Virus genome (UHGV): UHGV-0213490
Strand: one strand, 5' to 3'
DNA: 25,438 nt
From: a virus
Numbering within the stretch: position 1 is the first letter of the stretch; every line of letters starts with the position of its first letter. Below, in pieces: positions 1 to 24,613 of the stretch. A program made the translations under genes and the position numbers. The notes beneath the pieces are model-generated. The model did no database searches and was not told where the DNA came from. It saw only the letters and a program-made list of their open reading frames with translations.

Positions 1-1020
1 CTACTTACTGACCACAAGCGGCAAATCCAGTGTTGGGGTGATTTTGGTTTTACGATCGTAAATCAACACCTGATTTTCTGTTTTGTGTCCACTGAAAATT
101 TGTTTGTCGCGACTGCTGCCTTCGTAATCTGAAATCCCTTTGGCTTTTATGTCATGGAAGTTGCACCCAAACGGAACGCCGGCTTTTTGCTCGGCTGCAC
201 GTTTAGCCTGATTCCACCAGTTGTTCAGCGTCTTGGCTATTACCTTCCCACCTTTGGTTGTGTTGATCACATACTCGCATGTGCCGGAAGATACATTTCG
301 GGCTAACTGGATCGCCGTACGTAATCGCGGAGACCATTCCTTGATTTGTTTTGTGCCGGTCTTGTTTTGCTCAATGTAAATCCCTTTATCCATAATATCC
401 TGCCATTTCAGCTCGAGTACATCACCGAGCCTTGCCGCACAAAGATAGGATATCTCCATTGCAATACGTAACTGTGGAATTGCTTCTGCATATATTGCAG
501 CATACTGTTCATCGGTGATGTAAACAGTACGGGCTTTAAGTGTGAATTTTCTGACTCCTTTGCATGGATTATTTTTCACATACCCACGCTCATATCCCCA
601 TCCGTATACACGGCTCAGACTTGCCAGTTCATGGTTTGCCTGGGTCTTGCTCTCAAGTCCTCGCTTATCCATGAAAATTCTTACCTGTTCAATTTTTACA
701 TTATCAGCAAGCACTTTTCCGAATACTGCCAACAATGCCCTTTGATGTTGCCGATAATCTTTTTGGGTTCGGGGGGCCAGTTCTGTAAATGTAGGGGAGT
801 CCATAAACATGTGCCATAATTTAGCTACTGTCATTATGTTGTGGAGTTTTGCTTTTTCCAGCTCATAATTTTGCCAGACTTTAGCTACGCTGGTTTCCCG
901 CACTCTTCCGAGCCCTATAGTTCTTGTGCTTCCTTCGGGTTTCCATACGTAACTGTAACCATTCGATCTAACACGCGGTGGTAGAGCATTATCTTTTTTG
1001 TTTTTTCTTGGTCTTCCCAT
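1..1020 (-). CDS. int: Phage tyrosine integrase (lambda Int family)
   Basis: 339-aa ORF at the prophage end; C-terminal HKTENQVLIYDRK resembles the lambda Int catalytic Tyr region; overlaps the xis-like ORF upstream as in int-xis modules. Confidence 0.9.
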   Translation of the reverse strand: MGRPRKNKKDNALPPRVRSNGYSYVWKPEGSTRTIGLGRVRETSVAKVWQNYELEKAKLHNIMTVAKLWHMFMDSPTFTELAPRTQKDYRQHQRALLAVFGKVLADNVKIEQVRIFMDKRGLESKTQANHELASLSRVYGWGYERGYVKNNPCKGVRKFTLKARTVYITDEQYAAIYAEAIPQLRIAMEISYLCAARLGDVLELKWQDIMDKGIYIEQNKTGTKQIKEWSPRLRTAIQLARNVSSGTCEYVINTTKGGKVIAKTLNNWWNQAKRAAEQKAGVPFGCNFHDIKAKGISDYEGSSRDKQIFSGHKTENQVLIYDRKTKITPTLDLPLVVSK

Positions 1021-11316: not shown

Positions 11317-11653
11317 AAGGAAACAAAACAGAAACAGCAATTGCCGTTACCTGTTGTTATCATGGCAAGTAAACGTATCTCAGGCGAGCGCATTGCGCCG
11401 TTCTGACGCAGATAAACTAGCCTGGATAGATGGTGCTGGCAATAAAAAATAGCGTTTTCTTATCGGTGTCGGTAAGATTGCTGCGGGTGCTTGAGGCTGT
11501 CTGCCTCGGGCATGCCACTGTAAGGCAGACAGAGAAAAGCCCCAGTTAACATTACGCGTCCTGCAAGACGCTTAACATTAATCTGAGGCCCAATCTATGT
11601 CTCACAAATGTAGGTTAGCCTCTTACGTGCCGAAAGGCAAGGAGAAGCAGGCT

Positions 11654-11809
11654 ATGAAGCAGCAAAAGGCGATGTTAATCGCCCTGATCGTCATCTGTTT
11701 AACCGTCATAGTGACGGCACTGGTAACGAGGAAAGACCTCTGCGAGGTACGAATCCGAACCGGCCAGACGGAGGTTGCTGTCTTCGTGGACTACGAATCT
11801 GAGAAGTAA
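11654..11809 (+). CDS. hok: Hok/Gef-family type I toxin
   Basis: MKQQKAMLIALIVICLTVIVTALVTRKDLCEVRIRTGQTEVAVFVDYESEK: single TM plus conserved CE..R.G..EVA motif; AGGAGA RBS; in-frame upstream ATG at 11597 gives a mok-like extension. Confidence 0.85.
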   Translation: MKQQKAMLIALIVICLTVIVTALVTRKDLCEVRIRTGQTEVAVFVDYESEK

Positions 11810-14154: not shown

Positions 14155-14526
14155 ATGTGTATAGAGTTTGTTTTGCCTTACCCGCCGACGGTGAATACTT
14201 ACTGGCGACGTCGTGGCAGCACATATTTTGTATCAAAAGCCGGTGAGCGTTATCGCCGTGATGTGGCACTTATTGTTCGCCAGCAGCAACTGAAATTAAA
14301 CCTGTCCGGAAGGCTGGCGATAACGGTTATTGCCGAGCCGCCGGATAAGCGTCGTCGTGATCTGGACAATATCCTGAAAGCACCACTGGATGCGCTGACG
14401 CATGCGGGACTGCTTATCGACGACGAGCAGTTTGATGAAATTAATATTGTGCGCGGTCAGCTCGTTCCTGGTGGTCGGCTGGGCGTGAAGATTTGCGAAA
14501 TTAGAGGTGATAGTAATGGGGCGTGA
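14155..14526 (+). CDS. rusA: Holliday-junction resolvase RusA
   Basis: LPYPPTVNTYW...DKRRRDLDNILKAPLDALTHAGLLIDDEQ matches the RusA family signature; AAGGGGG RBS. Confidence 0.85.
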   Translation: MCIEFVLPYPPTVNTYWRRRGSTYFVSKAGERYRRDVALIVRQQQLKLNLSGRLAITVIAEPPDKRRRDLDNILKAPLDALTHAGLLIDDEQFDEINIVRGQLVPGGRLGVKICEIRGDSNGA

Positions 14527-14866
14527 TATGTATGAGGTTTTAGACCGCTGGGGGGCATGGGCTGCAGCAGAAAATAGTGGTGTCGATTGGCAACCGATAG
14601 CAGCGGGCTTCAAGGGGCTTTTACCACGCGGTAAAAAGTCACGTCTCCAGTGTGATGATGATGAGGGGCTCATGATCGATGGGTGCGTAGCTAGATTAAG
14701 AAAGTACAAACCAGAAGAGTATGAGTTAGTTATAGCCCATTTTGTGGTAGGGATTTCATTGCGAGCCATTGCTAAGAAGAGAAAGTGTTCGGATGGGACT
14801 ATCAGGAAAGAGTTGCAAACATCGCTTGGTTTCATTGAAGGCATTGTTTGCACTCTTGCCTGTTAA
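14516..14866 (+). CDS. Q: Late-gene antiterminator Q (QuuD/Q82-like)
   Basis: MGRDMYEVLDRWGAWAA...IAAGFKG...CDDDEG...C resembles E. coli QuuD-type Q proteins; GAGGTGA RBS; follows rusA as in lambdoid nin-Q order. Confidence 0.8.
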   Translation: MGRDMYEVLDRWGAWAAAENSGVDWQPIAAGFKGLLPRGKKSRLQCDDDEGLMIDGCVARLRKYKPEEYELVIAHFVVGISLRAIAKKRKCSDGTIRKELQTSLGFIEGIVCTLAC

Positions 14867-14887: not shown

Positions 14888-15772
14888 TTATATTGGGCGC
14901 TTTGAATTCGATTTAAAGCGTCTTCCACTTATTCCAGAAACCCAAATGTCTTCCTCAAGAAAGTCAAGAAGGGCTTTTATTTCTTTTTTTGATGAAGGCA
15001 TGACAATTTTCTCAACGCCGCCAACTATTATGGTTTGTAAGGGGAATTTAACTTTAGCAGCTTCGGATTTAAACTTTGACATATTTGGGGGTGTTAGCAT
15101 CCCAGTCTGATTTATTAGTGTTACTTTATTTCTTATCACTGTATCTGCAACGGATTTTAGATCAAAACCTTGGGGAGTAGAAAATACACTAAGTTGACTA
15201 AATGCATTAAGTTCTTGGTCAGTAGCAGCAGAAAAATAGGACGACATGTCAAAAATGCTTCTTAGATTAAAGAAACTCTTAAATCGTATTGTATCATTGA
15301 TAATTATTGCAACTAGTTTATCATCAACATTAAAACCGATGCTATTAGCTTTACTAAAGGTAGTTTTGCTTGCAAAAAGCTTTCCAAAGAATGATTTTGA
15401 GGTATCTAAGATTTGTTTTTTGTTGAAAGTTTGTAGTGCAATAATATTGGGGTTTGCTGGCGCGTCAACACCAACAAATAATGCTTTAATATAACCAATA
15501 TCAATTTGGCTAGGATCCCAGATAGGCACGGCGGTAGGCCTATTGACTGCGTCAATCAGGCGTGCAGAATCAGTAAAGTTTTGTATTTCAAAACACTCAC
15601 TATGTTTTGGTGTATAACCGGCATAGAATGGTATCATATTGTTATGATGACTTTCAAAATATTGACGCTGTTGTTGGAAAATGGCCGTAACAGAAGTACT
15701 TGCTGTTGCATCAAGTTCGACTCTAACAATTCTCGTTGCAATTGTATTATCTATTACTGCAAAAAGTGCCAT
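14888..15772 (-). CDS. Unknown 294-aa soluble protein, gene 2 of AT-rich cassette (candidate defence effector)
   Basis: Long ORF in strongly AT-rich DNA on the opposite strand to the flanking phage genes; AAGGAT RBS; 5-nt gap from the upstream membrane gene; no motif I recognise. Confidence 0.7.
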   Translation of the reverse strand: MALFAVIDNTIATRIVRVELDATASTSVTAIFQQQRQYFESHHNNMIPFYAGYTPKHSECFEIQNFTDSARLIDAVNRPTAVPIWDPSQIDIGYIKALFVGVDAPANPNIIALQTFNKKQILDTSKSFFGKLFASKTTFSKANSIGFNVDDKLVAIIINDTIRFKSFFNLRSIFDMSSYFSAATDQELNAFSQLSVFSTPQGFDLKSVADTVIRNKVTLINQTGMLTPPNMSKFKSEAAKVKFPLQTIIVGGVEKIVMPSSKKEIKALLDFLEEDIWVSGISGRRFKSNSKRPI

Positions 15773-15777
15773 GGTTA

Positions 15778-16299
15778 TTATCCTTTAACATGTAGAAATG
15801 TGTAGTCTGTTAATTGAATAACTGTAAATTTGATATCTTTAATATCAGTAATGACTGATTTAGAAATCAATACAAAACCTACGCCGGTGTCATCTTCAGC
15901 TTCGTAAAATTTATAACCGATAAGTGACAATACTGGGTTAAAGTTATAGTTCTCGGAAAAGCTGATGTAAAATAACAATGACAAATAAAAGAATAACGCA
16001 TATGCTTTATTTTCAGCAATAGAATCTGTTCCTAGGAGAGGGAATAAATAGCTTAAGAAATAATTAGTTACTTCTTTGTTAGCTGGAGAAACTGAACTAA
16101 TATTTTTTGTCAGAGGTTCAAGTTGTTTCTCAGCATATTGAATCAGGCCTATTGCTAATAACCAACTTGCTATGCCAACGCATAAGCTATATTGCATCAG
16201 CCAAACCGTATCTTTTACATATCCAATAAAAAATAGAGTTGCGCAAACAGGTGCAATTGAGCTGGCCGTTAATAATAAGCGTGCTAATTTGTTCATCAT
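15778..16299 (-). CDS. Unknown 173-aa polytopic membrane protein, gene 1 of AT-rich cassette
   Basis: Three to four hydrophobic helices (LLLTASSIAPVCATLFFIGY, WLMQYSLCVGIASWLLAIGLIQY, YFLSYLFPLLG, AYALFFYLSLLFYISF) plus about 55-aa C-terminal tail; AAGGA RBS. Confidence 0.7.
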   Translation of the reverse strand: MMNKLARLLLTASSIAPVCATLFFIGYVKDTVWLMQYSLCVGIASWLLAIGLIQYAEKQLEPLTKNISSVSPANKEVTNYFLSYLFPLLGTDSIAENKAYALFFYLSLLFYISFSENYNFNPVLSLIGYKFYEAEDDTGVGFVLISKSVITDIKDIKFTVIQLTDYTFLHVKG

Positions 16300-18170: not shown

Positions 18171-18246
<76 letters not shown>

Positions 18247-18249
18247 TAT

Positions 18250-18324
<75 letters not shown>

Positions 18325-18884: not shown

Positions 18885-19274
18885 ATGTCTGAACCCTTAT
18901 CCGGTTCCGGCACGGCTGCGGCGCTCGGTGGGGCGACGGTATTCGGGCTGTTTACCGGAACGGATTTCGGGATTGTATTTGGTGCGTTCGCTGGTGCGTT
19001 GTTTGTGGCAACAATGCCGCAGACACTTTCAGCCTGGCGTGTGGCTGCACATTTTCTGGTGTCCTTTATTGTTGGTGTGCTTGGGGCGGATGTGATGGCG
19101 TCTTACCTGGTTGAAAAACTGAATCTCCACAGCACATCTCTCGACGCGCTTTGCGCGGTACTGGTATCGGTGGTGTCGGTGAAGATTCTCTCATTCATCC
19201 ACCAGCAGGATATCGCATCGCTGTTATCCGGGCTGTTCTCCCGTCTGCGGGGTGGAGGCGGTAATGTTAAGTAA
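18885..19274 (+). CDS. Putative holin (multi-TM membrane protein)
   Basis: 129-aa ORF with GGAGAAAAAAG RBS; Gly/Ala-rich TM helices; first gene of the lysis cassette. Confidence 0.55.
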   Translation: MSEPLSGSGTAAALGGATVFGLFTGTDFGIVFGAFAGALFVATMPQTLSAWRVAAHFLVSFIVGVLGADVMASYLVEKLNLHSTSLDALCAVLVSVVSVKILSFIHQQDIASLLSGLFSRLRGGGGNVK

Positions 19275-19292: not shown

Positions 19293-19541
19293 GTGGTGTT
19301 AAGCACGGTTATCGTGCTGACGCTCTTTTTTTATCGTCGTGGTGAGTCGAGACATAAACCGCTGATGTCGTGGCTGGCCTGGCTGCTGATGCTGCTTTAT
19401 GCCTTTGCGCCGCTTTGTTATCTGTGTGGTCGCTTTCCACCCGGTAACTGGCTGGTCGTCCTGATTAACCTAGTGTTCTGCGTGCTGGTGATACGAGCAC
19501 GCGGGAACGTATCAAGAATCCTTGTATTACGAAGGCGCTGA
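19293..19541 (+). CDS. Small membrane protein in lysis cassette (possible holin/antiholin partner)
   Basis: GTG start at 19293 or ATG at 19365; two hydrophobic helices; ends 1 nt before the endolysin ATG. Confidence 0.4.
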   Translation: MVLSTVIVLTLFFYRRGESRHKPLMSWLAWLLMLLYAFAPLCYLCGRFPPGNWLVVLINLVFCVLVIRARGNVSRILVLRRR

Positions 19542-19542
19542 T

Positions 19543-20088
19543 ATGAAGTCGAAAGATGAAATTTTTGACGAAATTCTGGGAAAAGAGGGCGGTTACGTCA
19601 ATCACCCGGATGATAAAGGTGGTCCGACTAAATGGGGCATCACTGAAAAAGTTGCCCGTGCACACGGTTATCAGGGCGATATGCGTGACCTGACGCGTGG
19701 GCAGGCGCTGGAAATACTCGAGGCGGACTACTGGTACGGACCACGATTCGACCAGGTTGAGGACCTGTCTCCTGATATTGCCGCAGAGTTGTGCGATACG
19801 GGCGTGAACATGGGGCCAACTGTGGCGTCCAGAATGCTTCAGCGCTGGCTGAACGTTTTCAACCTGCGCGGGAAACTCTATCCGGATATGGATGCTGATG
19901 GACGCATCGGGCCGCGTACTCTTAATGCATTACGGGCATATCTGAAAAATCGCAGCAGGGATGGTGAACTGGTACTGGTGAAAGCCCTGAACTGTACGCA
20001 GGGCGAGCGTTATCTGGAGCTGGCAGAGAAACGCGAGGCCAATGAGTCGTTTGTCTATGGCTGGCTGAAAGAGCGCGTGGTGGTTTAA
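19543..20088 (+). CDS. Endolysin, GH108-type muramidase with peptidoglycan-binding domain
   Basis: MKSKDEIFDEILGKEGGYVNHPDDKGGPTKWGIT is the typical GH108 N-terminus; C-terminal PG-binding-like region; alternative upstream ATG at 19522. Confidence 0.8.
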   Translation: MKSKDEIFDEILGKEGGYVNHPDDKGGPTKWGITEKVARAHGYQGDMRDLTRGQALEILEADYWYGPRFDQVEDLSPDIAAELCDTGVNMGPTVASRMLQRWLNVFNLRGKLYPDMDADGRIGPRTLNALRAYLKNRSRDGELVLVKALNCTQGERYLELAEKREANESFVYGWLKERVVV

Positions 20089-20184
20089 AAACTGACACTG
20101 AAGTGCTGAACACCCTCAACTCATGCAGGCTCTTTTCTGGGGCTACGATGAGCGAAAGTAAGGGGCATAGCATCAGATAGCAAA

Positions 20185-20220
20185 AACCCCGGCTGCGGTA
20201 ACAGTCCGGGGTTTTCTGTT
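20185..20220 (+). terminator. Rho-independent terminator after the endolysin
   Basis: CCCCGGCTG-cggtaa-CAGtCCGGGG followed by a T-rich run. Confidence 0.65.
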
Positions 20221-20248
20221 TCTGGCCTTGGGTAAGGCAAAGGAGAAC

Positions 20249-20431
20249 ATGAGGAAGTATAAACTAATTCTGTTGAGGTTGACTATGAAAAACGGCCTTG
20301 AATTGAAAGCGCCTGTAACTGATGACATCAGCAGAGCGGTGGCTTTTGCCATTAAGTGGGTGGCGGTCGGTATCACTGTGTCTCCGATTCTGTATGGGAT
20401 GGCAAAATTGATCATTGCTGTGAAATCGTAA
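20249..20431 (+). CDS. Small protein with C-terminal TM helix
   Basis: 60-aa ORF with AAGGAGAA RBS; C-terminal AVAFAIKWVAVGITVSPILYGMAKLIIAV. Confidence 0.45.
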   Translation: MRKYKLILLRLTMKNGLELKAPVTDDISRAVAFAIKWVAVGITVSPILYGMAKLIIAVKS

Positions 20432-20448
20432 GTGGGGCAGGGGTAAAT

Positions 20449-20583
20449 ATGTCAGATAGCATTATAAAACTGGCGCGAATTCTCTGTGTGGTTGTTGGCC
20501 TTTCATTTTCAGCAATGTTGGTTGCCATTTTCATTTCCACCGCCTGGCGAGTATTGAGCCTATCCGGATTGATTGGTGGATAG
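20449..20583 (+). CDS. 44-aa single-TM micro-protein
   Basis: ATG 20449 after GGGGCAGGGG; MSDSIIKLARILCVVVGLSFSAMLVAIFIST. Confidence 0.4.
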   Translation: MSDSIIKLARILCVVVGLSFSAMLVAIFISTAWRVLSLSGLIGG

Positions 20584-20587
20584 TGAG

Positions 20588-20770
20588 ATGAAGCGAAAAC
20601 ACTGGACACACAGAATGCCGCGAACGGCGGCGAAATGGGCACTGGTAGCGATACTGGTGCCTTTTTTCCTGGTGGGATGCGTCAGCCTGGATAAGGCGCG
20701 CCAGCTTTTCGATACAGCTTCTCAGATCTGTGAAATTGTCGACGGTGTTCGGCAGTGTATGCAGAACTGA
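20588..20770 (+). CDS. Small lipoprotein
   Basis: 60-aa ORF with signal peptide and lipobox (ALVAILVPFFLVGC); two further Cys in the mature part. Confidence 0.5.
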   Translation: MKRKHWTHRMPRTAAKWALVAILVPFFLVGCVSLDKARQLFDTASQICEIVDGVRQCMQN

Positions 20771-21927: not shown

Positions 21928-22419
21928 ATGGATCGTGAGTTGAAAAATCTGATGCTGAACATTAACCAACTGGCGGCAATAGCAGGTATATGTCGTCAGA
22001 CTGCGGCGGCAAGACTGCAAAACATCCAGCCCGCCGGAGGACATGACAAGTTAAAGCTCTACCGGGTGGCAGATATTGTGTCGGCATTTCTGGCATTACC
22101 ACCGCCAGTTGCAGAAGGCGAAATGGACGCGCATGAGCGCAAAGCCTGGTATCAGTCTGAGCGTGAACGTCTTAAGTTTGAACAGGAAACAGCACAACTT
22201 ATTCCGGCAAGCGATGTCAGGCGGGAATTTGCCATCTGGGCAAAAGCGGTGGTACAGGTGCTGGAGACATTACCCGATGTTCTGGAGCGTGACTGCGGTC
22301 TGCAGCCCACTGCTGTAAGTCGTGTTCAGACCATCATTGATGATCTGCGCGATCAGATAGCCCAACGGGTGACCGAAACAGGTGCGGATGATGAGGAGGA
22401 ATTACATCAGGAGGAGTAA
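21928..22419 (+). CDS. Terminase small subunit (lambda Nu1-like)
   Basis: MDRELKNLMLNINQLAAIAGICRQTAAARLQNI is an N-terminal HTH comparable to Nu1; acidic C-terminus; lies just downstream of cos. Confidence 0.7.
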   Translation: MDRELKNLMLNINQLAAIAGICRQTAAARLQNIQPAGGHDKLKLYRVADIVSAFLALPPPVAEGEMDAHERKAWYQSERERLKFEQETAQLIPASDVRREFAIWAKAVVQVLETLPDVLERDCGLQPTAVSRVQTIIDDLRDQIAQRVTETGADDEEELHQEE

Positions 22420-22501
22420 TGCTGAATCAGGAAACCGCAAAGGCAGCACGAACCGATTCAGGTTATATCCTTCGTGCACCGAGACGAATGCGGATTGCTG
22501 A

Positions 22502-23524
22502 TGCTGTCGCTCAATATATGCGGGTATTCTTGCGAAATCGACCGTTGCTGCCGTTATCGAATACCTCGGTTTACAGGAAACGGTAAATCAGGCTTCTGGC
22601 GCATTACAGAAAAACCAGAACGGCGCAGATATTCCAGGAAAAGATACCTTCACCAAAAATATTGGTGCCTGCCGCGCATATAGCGCATGGCTGAATATTG
22701 GTGGCGATAGTCAGGTCTGGACAACCGCGCAATTTATTTCGTGGCTGGAGAGTCAGGGAGCATTTAACCATCCTTACTGGATGTGCAAAGGCTCATGGGC
22801 TTATGCAAACAATAAGGTCATTACAGATACAGGTTGCGGAAATATTTGTCTTGCAGGTGCTGTGGTGGAAGTTATTGGCACTCGCGGCGCAATGACCATA
22901 CGCGTTACCACGCCGAGTACGTCCAGCGGCGGCGGAATCACTAACGCTCAATTCACTTATATTAATCATGGTGATGCTTACGCTCCTGGCTGGCGACGAG
23001 ACTACAACACGAAAAACCAGCAGCCTGCATTTGCTTTAGGGCAAACAGGAAGCACTGTCGGAAATGATAAAGCTGTTGGCTGGAACTGGAATAGCGGGGT
23101 CTATAACGCAAATATTGGTGGCGCATCGACATTAATCCTCCATTTCAATATGAATGCGGGGAGTTGCCCTGCTGTACAGTTCCGCGTGAATTATAAGAAC
23201 GGCGGTATTTTTTATCGTTCAGCGCGTGATGCTTATGGATTTGAGACTGACTGGTCAGAATTCTACACCACAACACGTAAGCCATCAGCGGGAGATGTTG
23301 GTGCATATACGCGGGCAGAATGTAACTCAAGGTTTATTACAGGTATTCGCCTTGGCGGTCTGTTATCTGTTAAGACATGGCATGGTTCTGGCTGGTCTGA
23401 CAGGTCAGGTTATGTCGTTACGGGTTCAGTTAACGAAAACCGTGATGAATTAATTGATACAATTCAGGCAAGGCCAATTCAGTATTGCATTAATGGGGTG
23501 TGGTATAACGCGGGGAGTATTTAA
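22502..23524 (+). pseudogene. Side tail fibre protein, 3' fragment (N-terminal part missing)
   Basis: Open frame with no start before the in-frame TGA at 22499-22501; GALQKNQNGADIPGKD resembles the conserved RLQKDQNGADIPDKG motif of lambda-type Stf; followed by tfa. Confidence 0.6.
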
Positions 23525-23526
23525 CG

Positions 23527-24069
23527 ATGATGCACTTAAAAAACATTACTGCTGGAAACCCTAAAACAAAAGAGCAATACCAGCTAACGAAACAATTTAA
23601 CATCAAATGGCTTTATACAGAGGATGGGAAAAACTGGTATGAGGAACAAAAGAACTTTCAGCCTGATACGTTGAAAATGGTCTATGACCACAACGGCGTT
23701 ATTATTTGTATTGAAAAGGATGTTTCAGCAATTAATCCGGAAGGCGCAAGCGTCGTTGAATTACCTGATATTACAGCAAATCGCCGGGCTGATATTTCGG
23801 GTAAATGGATGTTTAAGGATGGCGTGGTAATTAACCGGGAATGCACTTATGAAGAACTGGTGCAGCAGGCAAAAAATAAAAAGAGCTTATTAATGCGACA
23901 GGCCGATGATTGCATGGCACCCCTTCGGGATGCTGTGGATTTGGATATGGCGACAGAGGGGGAAAAGGAACAGTTACTGACCTGGAAGAAATATCGGGTG
24001 TTACTAAACCGTGTTGATACATCGACCGCGCCGGATATTGAATGGCCGGAAGAACCAGACACAATGTAA
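23527..24069 (+). CDS. tfa: Tail fibre assembly protein
   Basis: [48 protein letters not shown]...[16 protein letters not shown] is a typical Tfa sequence. Confidence 0.85.
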
Positions 24070-24232
24070 GCGAAAAGAAAAACCGCAGACACGACGTATG
24101 CAGGACGTGCTGCGGTTGGCTGGCGAACTTTCGATAGTGCGAGTATTGAATGATTTCCAGCCGTTATTGATTTTATATAACTGTAGTGGAGTTATTCAAC
24201 ACACAGGCAAAACGGAATAATCTGAGAAAAAA

Positions 24233-24262
24233 GCGTGCTTCGCCAATCAGGGGGCGAAGCAC
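24233..24262. terminator. Strong hairpin (11-bp perfect stem), likely minus-strand terminator
   Basis: CGTGCTTCGCC-aatcaggg-GGCGAAGCACG; a T-run follows on the minus strand. Confidence 0.5.
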
Positions 24263-24525
24263 GTCTGAATGACACCTGAAAATTTCCCGTCCGTTAAGTG
24301 TCCGTCCCGAGAGAAGTGGGGAACCATAACACCCTGTCGGGACGCAGAAAGAAACAACACAACTTGCAGGGATATTTTCTTGATAAAGCATGAATGAGCA
24401 AGTGATTGTTTGTGCTGGCAGGGATTTTAGGAATTTTTTGGCAGAAAATATACCAATTGGTATACCAAGTTTATACCAAGAGCCAAAAAGCAAAGGGGCT
24501 ACCATTCGGTAACCCCTTGATTATC

Positions 24526-24613
24526 TGGCGGAAGCGCAGAGATTCGAACTCTGGAACCCTTTCGGGTCGCCGGTTTTCAAGACCGGTGCCTTCAACCGCT
24601 CGGCCACACTTCC
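24526..24613 (-). tRNA. serT: tRNA-Ser(UGA), host serT
   Basis: Reverse complement reads GGAAGTGTGGCCGAGCGGTTGAAGGCACCGGTCTTGAAAACCGG...GAGTTCGAATCTCTGCGCTTCCGCCA: long variable arm, anticodon UGA, 88 nt. Confidence 0.9.

Follow-up and report, generated by a model that had tools for sequence, protein, structure and literature searches.

The locus described here raises the question of which gene serves the outer-membrane step of lysis when the lysis genes of a prophage include no recognisable Rz/Rz1-type spanin. It lies in the virus genome UHGV-0213490, of which a stretch of 25,438 nucleotides (nt), called the window below, was analysed; the window is a lambdoid prophage remnant. Three small open reading frames (ORF1, ORF2 and ORF3) follow the endolysin gene. 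A first-pass annotation had read them as one unit, a trio of small membrane proteins and a lipoprotein standing where spanins are expected, and had proposed either an unusual spanin solution or a moron. Our analysis divides the trio. ORF3 is the last gene of a phiP27-type lysis cassette and probably serves the outer-membrane step without a canonical inner-membrane spanin subunit (i-spanin), while a terminator-like hairpin (T1), ORF1 and ORF2 form a separate, portable insert that is probably accessory. The genes and signals in question are arranged as follows.

18885-19274, plus strand: holin of the Phage_holin_8 type (Pfam PF16931, 5.5e-22; PHROG 198, 'holin'), the first gene of the lysis cassette
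19293-19541, plus strand: second holin or antiholin of the Phage_holin_3_7 type (Pfam PF05449, 3.5e-20; PHROG 217)
19543-20088, plus strand: endolysin with Glyco_hydro_108 (GH108) and PG_binding_3 domains (Pfam, 1e-26 and 8.5e-27)
about 20182-20224, plus strand: T1, a hairpin with a U-run resembling an intrinsic terminator, at the left edge of the T1-ORF1-ORF2 module
20249-20431, plus strand: ORF1, a tail-anchored small membrane protein of 60 amino acids (PHROG 1115/4493)
20449-20583, plus strand: ORF2, a peptide of 44 amino acids with a single transmembrane (TM) segment (PHROG 4906)
20588-20770, plus strand: ORF3, a prolipoprotein of 60 amino acids (PHROG 7528), the terminal lysis-cassette gene in the Rz/Rz1 position
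20637-20668, plus strand: T2, an 11-bp hairpin followed by T6, inside codons 17-27 of ORF3 in the region coding for the hydrophobic h-region of the signal peptide

The three ORFs are most likely to be read as real genes if they are called independently and kept by selection, and both were observed. The positions and the lengths of 60, 44 and 60 residues agreed with the first-pass annotation within one base, and hydropathy analysis returned the same order of a C-terminally anchored protein, a single-TM peptide and a lipoprotein. The NCBI pipeline PGAP calls the same three coding sequences in near-identical E. coli prophages (WP_001233879, WP_001284011 and WP_133158975), each as 'hypothetical protein'. 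All three match PHROGs of unknown function (1115 for ORF1, 4906 for ORF2 and 7528 for ORF3), and no family was found for any of them in Pfam, NCBIfam or PADLOC. Among homologues of 43-90% identity, purifying selection was observed for ORF1 (dN/dS 0.04-0.56), ORF2 (0.17-0.23) and ORF3 (0.14-0.29). The GC content does not separate the trio (0.44-0.52) from the lysis genes (0.49-0.58).

ORF3 has the features of a small outer-membrane lipoprotein. An n-region of 17 residues with six Lys or Arg is followed by the h-region and by the lipobox L-V-G-C31. The mature part has 30 residues, and its sequence pattern shows a Val, and no Asp, at position +2. The sole hydrophobic segment covers residues 13-32 and the C-terminus is polar; the mature part has a net charge of -1 and a hydrophobic moment of 0.4-0.54, which corresponds to a moderate amphipathicity. 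In a wide alignment of the family, the G-C of the lipobox and two further cysteines (Cys48 and Cys57), which are 8-10 residues apart, were invariant. Within the main clade, conservation is stronger in the signal peptide than in the mature part. In codons 3-8 the changes are synonymous and the amino acids conserved, which argues for translation from the upstream ATG. AlphaFold2 on the ORF3 alignment predicted one long helix at residues 12-59 with a pLDDT of 67, too weak and featureless for a fold search, and for the homologue in phiP27 a mature peptide with 83% helix was predicted earlier (PMC6139136). From these features ORF3 would be exported, lipid-modified at Cys31 and cleaved by signal peptidase II, and the Val at +2, in place of an Asp, would direct it to the outer membrane. 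There, on the periplasmic face, it would remain as a helix of about 30 residues that contains two cysteines.

The family of ORF3 is narrow. No match was found in Pfam or NCBIfam, Rz1 and other outer-membrane spanin subunit (o-spanin) families included, and searching the PDB sequences with the ORF3 profile gave chance matches only. A profile search of 1.84 billion representative proteins returned 24 clusters (at 50% identity), all of them short lipoprotein-like relatives or fragments, with no link to a known family. All named sources are enterobacterial. Among 5,426 complete E. coli genomes, 314 carry ORF3, some in as many as 7 copies, and members of the family also occur in the Shiga-toxin converting phages phiP27 (Stx2e) and phiSTEC1575 (Stx2k).

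The position of ORF3 was examined in two sets of loci. One set of 83 loci was retrieved by homology to ORF3; the other, 77 informative loci, was sampled by the Phage_holin_8 holin, which avoids conditioning on ORF3. In all 83 ORF3-retrieved loci the gene follows one or more holins and a GH108 or M15 endolysin, and in none of them was a 933W-type Rz found. About 30 of these loci are minimal, with holin, holin, M15 endolysin and then ORF3 after 13-15 nt. In one locus (L056) the stop codon of the GH108 gene overlaps the ORF3 start in the sequence ATGA. Judged by this spacing, ORF3 is translationally coupled to the endolysin gene in the minimal cassettes. What lies between endolysin and ORF3 varies from nothing to T1-ORF1-ORF2, an ORF1-like gene, Ant, KilA-N or, in phiP27, an ORF of 90 amino acids on the minus strand.

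The holin-sampled set showed that ORF3 and Rz/Rz1 are nearly mutually exclusive. ORF3 without Rz was found in 66 of the 77 loci, Rz/Rz1 alone in two (L278 and L287), neither in eight and both in one (L255), where Rz/Rz1 stands beside an ORF3 copy that has lost its N-terminal region. Likewise, GER2 has the order S-R-Rz followed by a downstream ORF3 remnant with two in-frame stops. The remark that the three ORFs sit where spanins are expected is borne out, with ORF3 in the slot of Rz/Rz1 after the endolysin. Two of the eight loci with neither gene belong to LT-II prophages (L210 4815-5955 and L211 5219-6368; Rac-SA53 and SerU-LTIIb), in which holin, holin and GH108 are followed by eltIIA/B and not by ORF3 or Rz/Rz1; no recognisable outer-membrane-step gene was found in these two cassettes.

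More distant relatives kept the same place. A scan for the hairpin pattern and a profile search found divergent members with 35-60% identity that also lie directly after an endolysin gene. In a Mu-like phage the ORF3 homologue overlaps the stop codon of the GH108 gene, in a lambdoid setting it accompanies a Phage_holin_3_1 holin and an M15_4 endolysin, and in other cassettes a holin of 117-118 residues and a third endolysin type of 175 residues. Over all loci with a family member, ORF3 keeps company with about four types of holin and three of endolysin, in three types of phage (Mu-like, lambdoid and P27-like). Since the holins differ across the family, no phage inner-membrane partner is constant. 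Taken together, the fixed position, the coupling to the endolysin, the travel across holin, endolysin and virion modules and the near-exclusivity with Rz/Rz1 point to a lysis gene that is interchangeable with spanins.

The same four features do not seem to fit a receptor-blocking or lysogenic-conversion moron, which was the other proposal of the first-pass annotation. ORF3 would then be a lipoprotein for receptor masking, superinfection exclusion or serum resistance that merely lies in the hotspot between the lysis and terminase genes. Small phage outer-membrane lipoproteins with conserved cysteines do have such roles: Cor and the Llp of T5 act in receptor masking and exclusion, and Bor in serum resistance. 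933W-type phages have a Bor-like gene in this region between lysis and terminase genes, both ORF3 and Rz/Rz1 are missing from about 10% of the cassettes sampled by the holin, and in the LT-II prophages toxin genes fill the slot. Lipoproteins of the Bor/Cor/Llp type are expressed from their own promoters, and the Bor-like gene of VT2phi_272 is on the strand opposite to the late genes. ORF3, by contrast, runs in the same direction as the endolysin gene, to which a short gap or overlapping stop and start codons couple it, and a simple consensus scan found no promoter of its own; the gene lies behind T1 and contains T2. It travels with the lysis genes across lambda-like, P27-like myovirus and Mu-like phages and not with any one tail module, it decays where Rz/Rz1 is present, and PADLOC gave no match. 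The moron proposal was weakened further for the trio as a whole, as the same scan showed no promoter-like site between T1 and ORF1. We regard a moron role of ORF3 as unlikely.

If ORF3 replaces Rz1, an inner-membrane subunit might be encoded nearby. A home-made heuristic was used that lists ORFs with a lipobox and ORFs in which a soluble tail comes after an N-terminal TM segment. ORF3 was the only lipobox ORF in the whole window, and no i-spanin-like ORF was found near the lysis genes of the window. As positive controls, Rz and the embedded Rz1 were recovered in PhiR12_3, and in VT2phi_272 (L004) Rz was recovered and Rz1 missed. The statement that no Rz/Rz1-type spanin is recognisable was therefore confirmed by a scan that does find such a pair in a control. 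In the complete phiP27 genome (42.6 kb) the ORF3 homologue was again the only lipobox ORF near the lysis genes, and no i-spanin-like ORF was found on the late strand except StxB, which was caught for its signal peptide. Across the 83 ORF3-retrieved loci no i-spanin-like ORF recurred.

This differs from the published account of phiP27. Kongari et al. (2018; PMC6139136) listed this phage as having a 'separated' two-component spanin of which both subunits are family singletons, with a combined periplasmic length of 62 residues, the shortest among the two-component spanins surveyed (PMC6139136). By its coordinates, the o-spanin given there is the ORF3 homologue, shortened to 51 amino acids by a start at an internal Met. 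The i-spanin is an ORF of 64 amino acids with a TTG start (L001 4278-4472; phiP27 20348-20542). This ORF had no PHROG match, it is antisense to the conserved 90-residue ORF (phrog_36812), and it was absent from the window and from the minimal cassettes. These three observations argue that the published partner is spurious, and it is probably not a gene. The entry as a singleton o-spanin was thus already in the catalogue; what is new is that ORF3 appears to stand alone, without a conserved phage inner-membrane partner. A literature search for an o-spanin without i-spanin and for the Rac-SA53 prophage gave nothing usable.

A two-component spanin would require ORF3 as the o-spanin and ORF1, ORF2 or another small ORF as the i-spanin, bridging and fusing the two membranes. 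The lipobox, the outer-membrane sorting signal, the periplasmic cysteines and the place in the lysis cassette would suit the first part, the published listing of phiP27 supports the pair, and the gap of only 4 nt between the ORF2 stop and ORF3 suggests translational coupling. Against this, neither ORF1 nor ORF2 has a periplasmic domain, both are missing from most ORF3 cassettes and both are found beside complete Rz/Rz1 genes elsewhere; the published i-spanin is antisense to the phrog_36812 ORF and missing in the window and the minimal cassettes, and no other candidate recurs in the 83 loci. A two-component spanin is accordingly very unlikely to be the solution here. The spanin proposal of the first-pass annotation can be kept for ORF3 alone, as a stand-in for Rz/Rz1, and is to be dropped for ORF1 and ORF2.

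ORF3 contains a second hairpin, T2, within its signal-peptide codons. It has a folding free energy (dG) of -18.4 kcal/mol (z -2.85), and the terminator scan found a run of six T after the 11-bp stem. Across 35 distinct sequences 99% of the cells were paired; in eight of the 11 pairs a single partner changes and wobble pairing is preserved, no double compensatory changes were seen, and a shuffle control and a covariation test were uninformative. A clearer result was obtained with synonymous codons. When the window was compared with the Lelliottia homologue, codons for the same amino acid were identical in eight cases and different in one within the hairpin, against five and 16 elsewhere (Fisher p = 0.0016), with an overall dS of 1.7 for ORF3. 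Pooling of four comparisons gave p = 0.0003. The hairpin sequence hardly varies among homologues in which the other codons are close to saturation. The missing synonymous change in the hairpin codons indicates a constraint at the nucleotide level, which accounts for at least part of the conservation of the signal peptide. T2 is confined to the main clade: one distant member has a shorter hairpin without a T-run and another has no hairpin.

T2 has the look of an intrinsic terminator inside a gene. With T1 upstream and T2 in its own 5' coding region, ORF3 would be limited to late transcription that is antiterminated by Q. A plausible, if speculative, purpose of a terminator at T2 would be to confine ORF3 to antiterminated transcription as a safeguard for a protein that damages the envelope.

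The terminator that the first-pass annotation had placed after the endolysin was found as T1, with a stem and a U-run. Its dG is -23 kcal/mol (z -4.3), and none of 200 shuffled sequences folded as well; a simple terminator scan missed it on account of a bulge and a long loop. In an alignment of the window with PhiR12_3 the homology starts exactly at T1 and runs to the start codon of the next gene, with the ends of the T1 stem conserved and the loop different. These borders define T1-ORF1-ORF2 as the mobile unit and contradict the treatment of the three ORFs as one unit, as the same insert lies between the R lysozyme gene and Rz of Rz-bearing coliphages.

In PhiR12_3 the order is S, R, the ORF1 homologue, the ORF2 homologue and Rz/Rz1, and in VT2phi_272 it is S, R, an insertion sequence (IS) element, Ant, the ORF2 homologue and Rz; in both, the ORF2 homologue stops 7 nt ahead of Rz. 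Homologues of ORF2 with 72-77% identity were found in 276 phage records, mostly of 933W-type Stx phages. ORF1 homologues occupy the R-to-Rz interval of PhiR12_3, GER2 and PhiR5_1, in the last of which the ORF1 TM segment is found among other small ORFs. An ORF1-like gene with 45% identity is the immediate neighbour of ORF3 in phiSTEC1575-Stx2k and of Rz in GER2. ORF1 and ORF2 each also occur without the other, and most ORF3-bearing cassettes have neither. Since the two are found beside complete Rz/Rz1 and are missing from most ORF3 cassettes, they cannot be the spanin solution. That ORF2 is a remnant of the N-terminal TM domain of Rz was considered from a similarity seen by eye and was dropped, as ORF2 lies before complete Rz genes.

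ORF1 has a single C-terminal hydrophobic segment at residues 30-58, and the chain ends two residues past the TM segment. Its N-terminal motif MRKYK..LRL is retained in 45%-identical homologues, which supports the first ATG as the start. ORF2 has one TM segment at residues 11-29 and at most about 14 residues after it. Neither protein matched a holin or antiholin family in Pfam, PHROGs, NCBIfam or PADLOC; a match to DUF3930 in this test reached 14.5 bits, far under the cutoff of 25. With a simple consensus scan, no sigma-70-like site was found between T1 and ORF1 or before ORF3, and no terminator after ORF3. With T1 ahead and no promoter behind it, the module would be read only by Q-modified polymerase passing through T1, that is late and not from the lysogen. 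ORF1 and ORF2 are thus probably accessory inner-membrane proteins that are expressed late.

What these proteins do was considered from their surroundings. Genes for small TM peptides, drawn from three or more families, either stand immediately ahead of the outer-membrane-step gene (Rz or ORF3) or run into its start. Tail-anchored peptides of 45-57 residues that end in R-W-W were observed in three loci (L006 2826-2999, L007 2130-2282 and L278 6466-6603); their genes reach the start of the following gene, stop within 1 nt of it or overlap it, and this following gene is Rz in two of the phages and ORF3 in the third. Extra small single-TM proteins that are needed for lysis and were missed by annotation are known: Lcc6 of LambdaSo and releasin of Mu, which work together with the holin and endolysin. 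ORF1 and ORF2 resemble these by description; Lcc6 is encoded far from the lysis cassette, whereas ORF1 and ORF2 come after the endolysin gene and before the outer-membrane-step gene, and the cassette type can do without them. The recurrence of small TM peptides before the outer-membrane-step gene and this precedent make an accessory role in lysis somewhat more likely than pure cargo.

As self-contained cargo, ORF1 and ORF2 would encode exclusion peptides or small membrane toxins and take no part in lysis. The module does move between unrelated lysis cassettes, the same junction holds other cargo such as Ant, KilA-N and IS elements, each of the two genes is found without the other, and neither has a family annotation. 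On the other side, the terminator at the 5' end and the missing promoter should keep such cargo silent in lysogens, and the small TM peptides of at least three families next to the outer-membrane-step gene suggest a link to that step. Cargo is, in our estimate, a rather improbable explanation. We favour an accessory function, in which T1-ORF1-ORF2 lands between the endolysin and the outer-membrane-step gene of ORF3-type and Rz-type cassettes and supplies two small inner-membrane proteins, most plausibly modulators of the membrane steps of lysis and not spanin subunits. In several coliphage lysis cassettes this junction is a shared landing site for genes of small membrane proteins.

How ORF3 might act was considered by comparison with known systems. 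Like lambda Rz1 and other o-spanins, it is a prolipoprotein of about 60 residues with outer-membrane sorting and periplasmic cysteine at the distal end of a lysis cassette. Unlike these, it has no i-spanin gene that contains, overlaps or adjoins it. Rz1 is proline-rich and unstructured, whereas the mature part of ORF3, 30 residues long, is predicted to be helical and has no prolines; with this length and no partner it also falls short of what a two-component spanin needs to bridge the periplasm. The unimolecular spanin gp11 of phage T1 is similarly encoded by one gene with an N-terminal lipoprotein signal and replaces Rz/Rz1, but ORF3 lacks its C-terminal TM domain and its long, beta-rich periplasmic domain. 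The disruptin of phiKT (gp28) is described as a short cationic antimicrobial peptide for the outer-membrane step in a spanin-less phage (bioRxiv 10.1101/515445); ORF3 differs from it by its lipoprotein signal peptide and the net charge of -1 of its mature part.

The nearest functional analogy is to the colicin lysis proteins or bacteriocin release proteins (BRP; Pfam Lysis_col), very small lipoproteins with a mature part of about 30 residues that compromise the envelope of the producing cell. For the BRP of pCloDF13, the cleaved signal peptide is stable and itself functional, as cited in PMC5727409 from van der Wal 1994/1995. ORF3 is likewise a small lipoprotein, and in the main clade the conservation of its signal peptide is unusually high. 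We draw an analogy here and do not place ORF3 in that family: the comparison with Pfam Lysis_col gave no match at E <= 1, ORF3 belongs to a phage lysis cassette and not to a colicin operon, and in the hairpin codons the constraint on nucleotides adds to the conservation. The best description of ORF3 is a variation on spanins that is already in the catalogue, though listed there with the wrong partner.

ORF3 would act at the outer membrane once the endolysin has removed the peptidoglycan, and it most likely carries out or assists the outer-membrane lysis step without a canonical phage inner-membrane spanin subunit. Disulphide-linked oligomers, a host partner or an action like that of colicin lysis proteins are candidate mechanisms. 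A bolder reading is that the family forms a class of outer-membrane lysis factor that has so far gone unrecognised and consists of a single component. A lipopeptide about 30 residues long would take over from Rz/Rz1 with no phage inner-membrane subunit; it may work like the colicin lysis proteins, through the mature lipopeptide, the released signal peptide or both, and in the main clade it would be locked to late expression by its built-in terminator. We hold this extended reading tentatively and lean slightly against it.

Several points weigh against the role proposed for ORF3 and its neighbours. The 30 mature residues are too short to span the periplasm and the mature peptide is not cationic, so that no known mechanism of outer-membrane disruption fits ORF3 directly. 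Eight of the 77 holin-sampled cassettes have neither ORF3 nor Rz/Rz1, which makes the slot dispensable, at least in prophages, some of them defective. The loci are closely related enterobacterial prophages and not independent samples. The i-spanin heuristic was validated on Rz-type controls only and missed the Rz1 of L004. The prophage of the window itself lacks head and tail genes, and its copies may be out of use. Finally, the role of ORF1 and ORF2 is drawn solely from position and analogy.

The question reaches beyond this prophage, as about one in seven phages that infect Gram-negative bacteria has no recognisable spanin (91 of 677, PMC6139136; about 15%, bioRxiv 10.1101/515445). The disruptin of phiKT was the only experimentally described spanin alternative found in our literature search, and the ORF3 cassette is a concrete candidate for another. 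If ORF3 alone breaches the outer membrane, it would offer a minimal means of lysing cells or of releasing their contents in a controlled way, and the spanin annotation would need correction, because the published phiP27 pair joins the ORF3 homologue to an ORF that probably is no gene.

The remaining genes of the window, in their order, are the following.

1-1020, minus strand: integrase, the first gene of the window
between the hok/sok locus and the Q gene: RusA
14507-14866: Q antiterminator
between the Q region and the lysis genes, in this order: methyltransferase, two tRNA genes and a terminator cluster

The gene of the small terminase subunit is located after the lysis genes. In the region 22419-24613 the small terminase (DUF1441) has directly behind it a C-terminal fragment of a tail fibre, then the gene for a tail-fibre assembly protein and a minus-strand tRNA. 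As no head or tail genes lie between the small terminase and the tail-fibre remnant, these genes have been deleted and the prophage is defective. The same layout of terminase and tail fibre was seen in E. coli ETEC1706 between yccA and hyaA (L003). The two tRNA genes ahead of the lysis cassette (18171-18321) have the methyltransferase gene on one side and the holin gene on the other. phiP27 likewise has tRNA genes after its methyltransferase gene, and there stx2e separates them from the holin; the window has no toxin genes at this place.

The stretch of about 95 nt from the endolysin stop to T1 (20089-20224) has no plus-strand ORF of more than 25 amino acids and ends in a strong terminator; Rfam at gathering thresholds gave no match in it. 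It could be a stable fragment of a 3' untranslated region or a small RNA. A complete hok/sok type I toxin-antitoxin locus was found in the early region at 11485-11809 (Rfam sok, 118 bits; Hok/Gef ORF at 11597-11809). Directly 3' of Q, on the opposite (minus) strand at 14888-16299, two genes encode a KwaB-like protein of 294 amino acids (Pfam KwaB, 30.6 bits with a cutoff of 26.3) and a protein of 173 amino acids with an N-terminal TM segment. This pair may be a defence moron of the Kiwa type.

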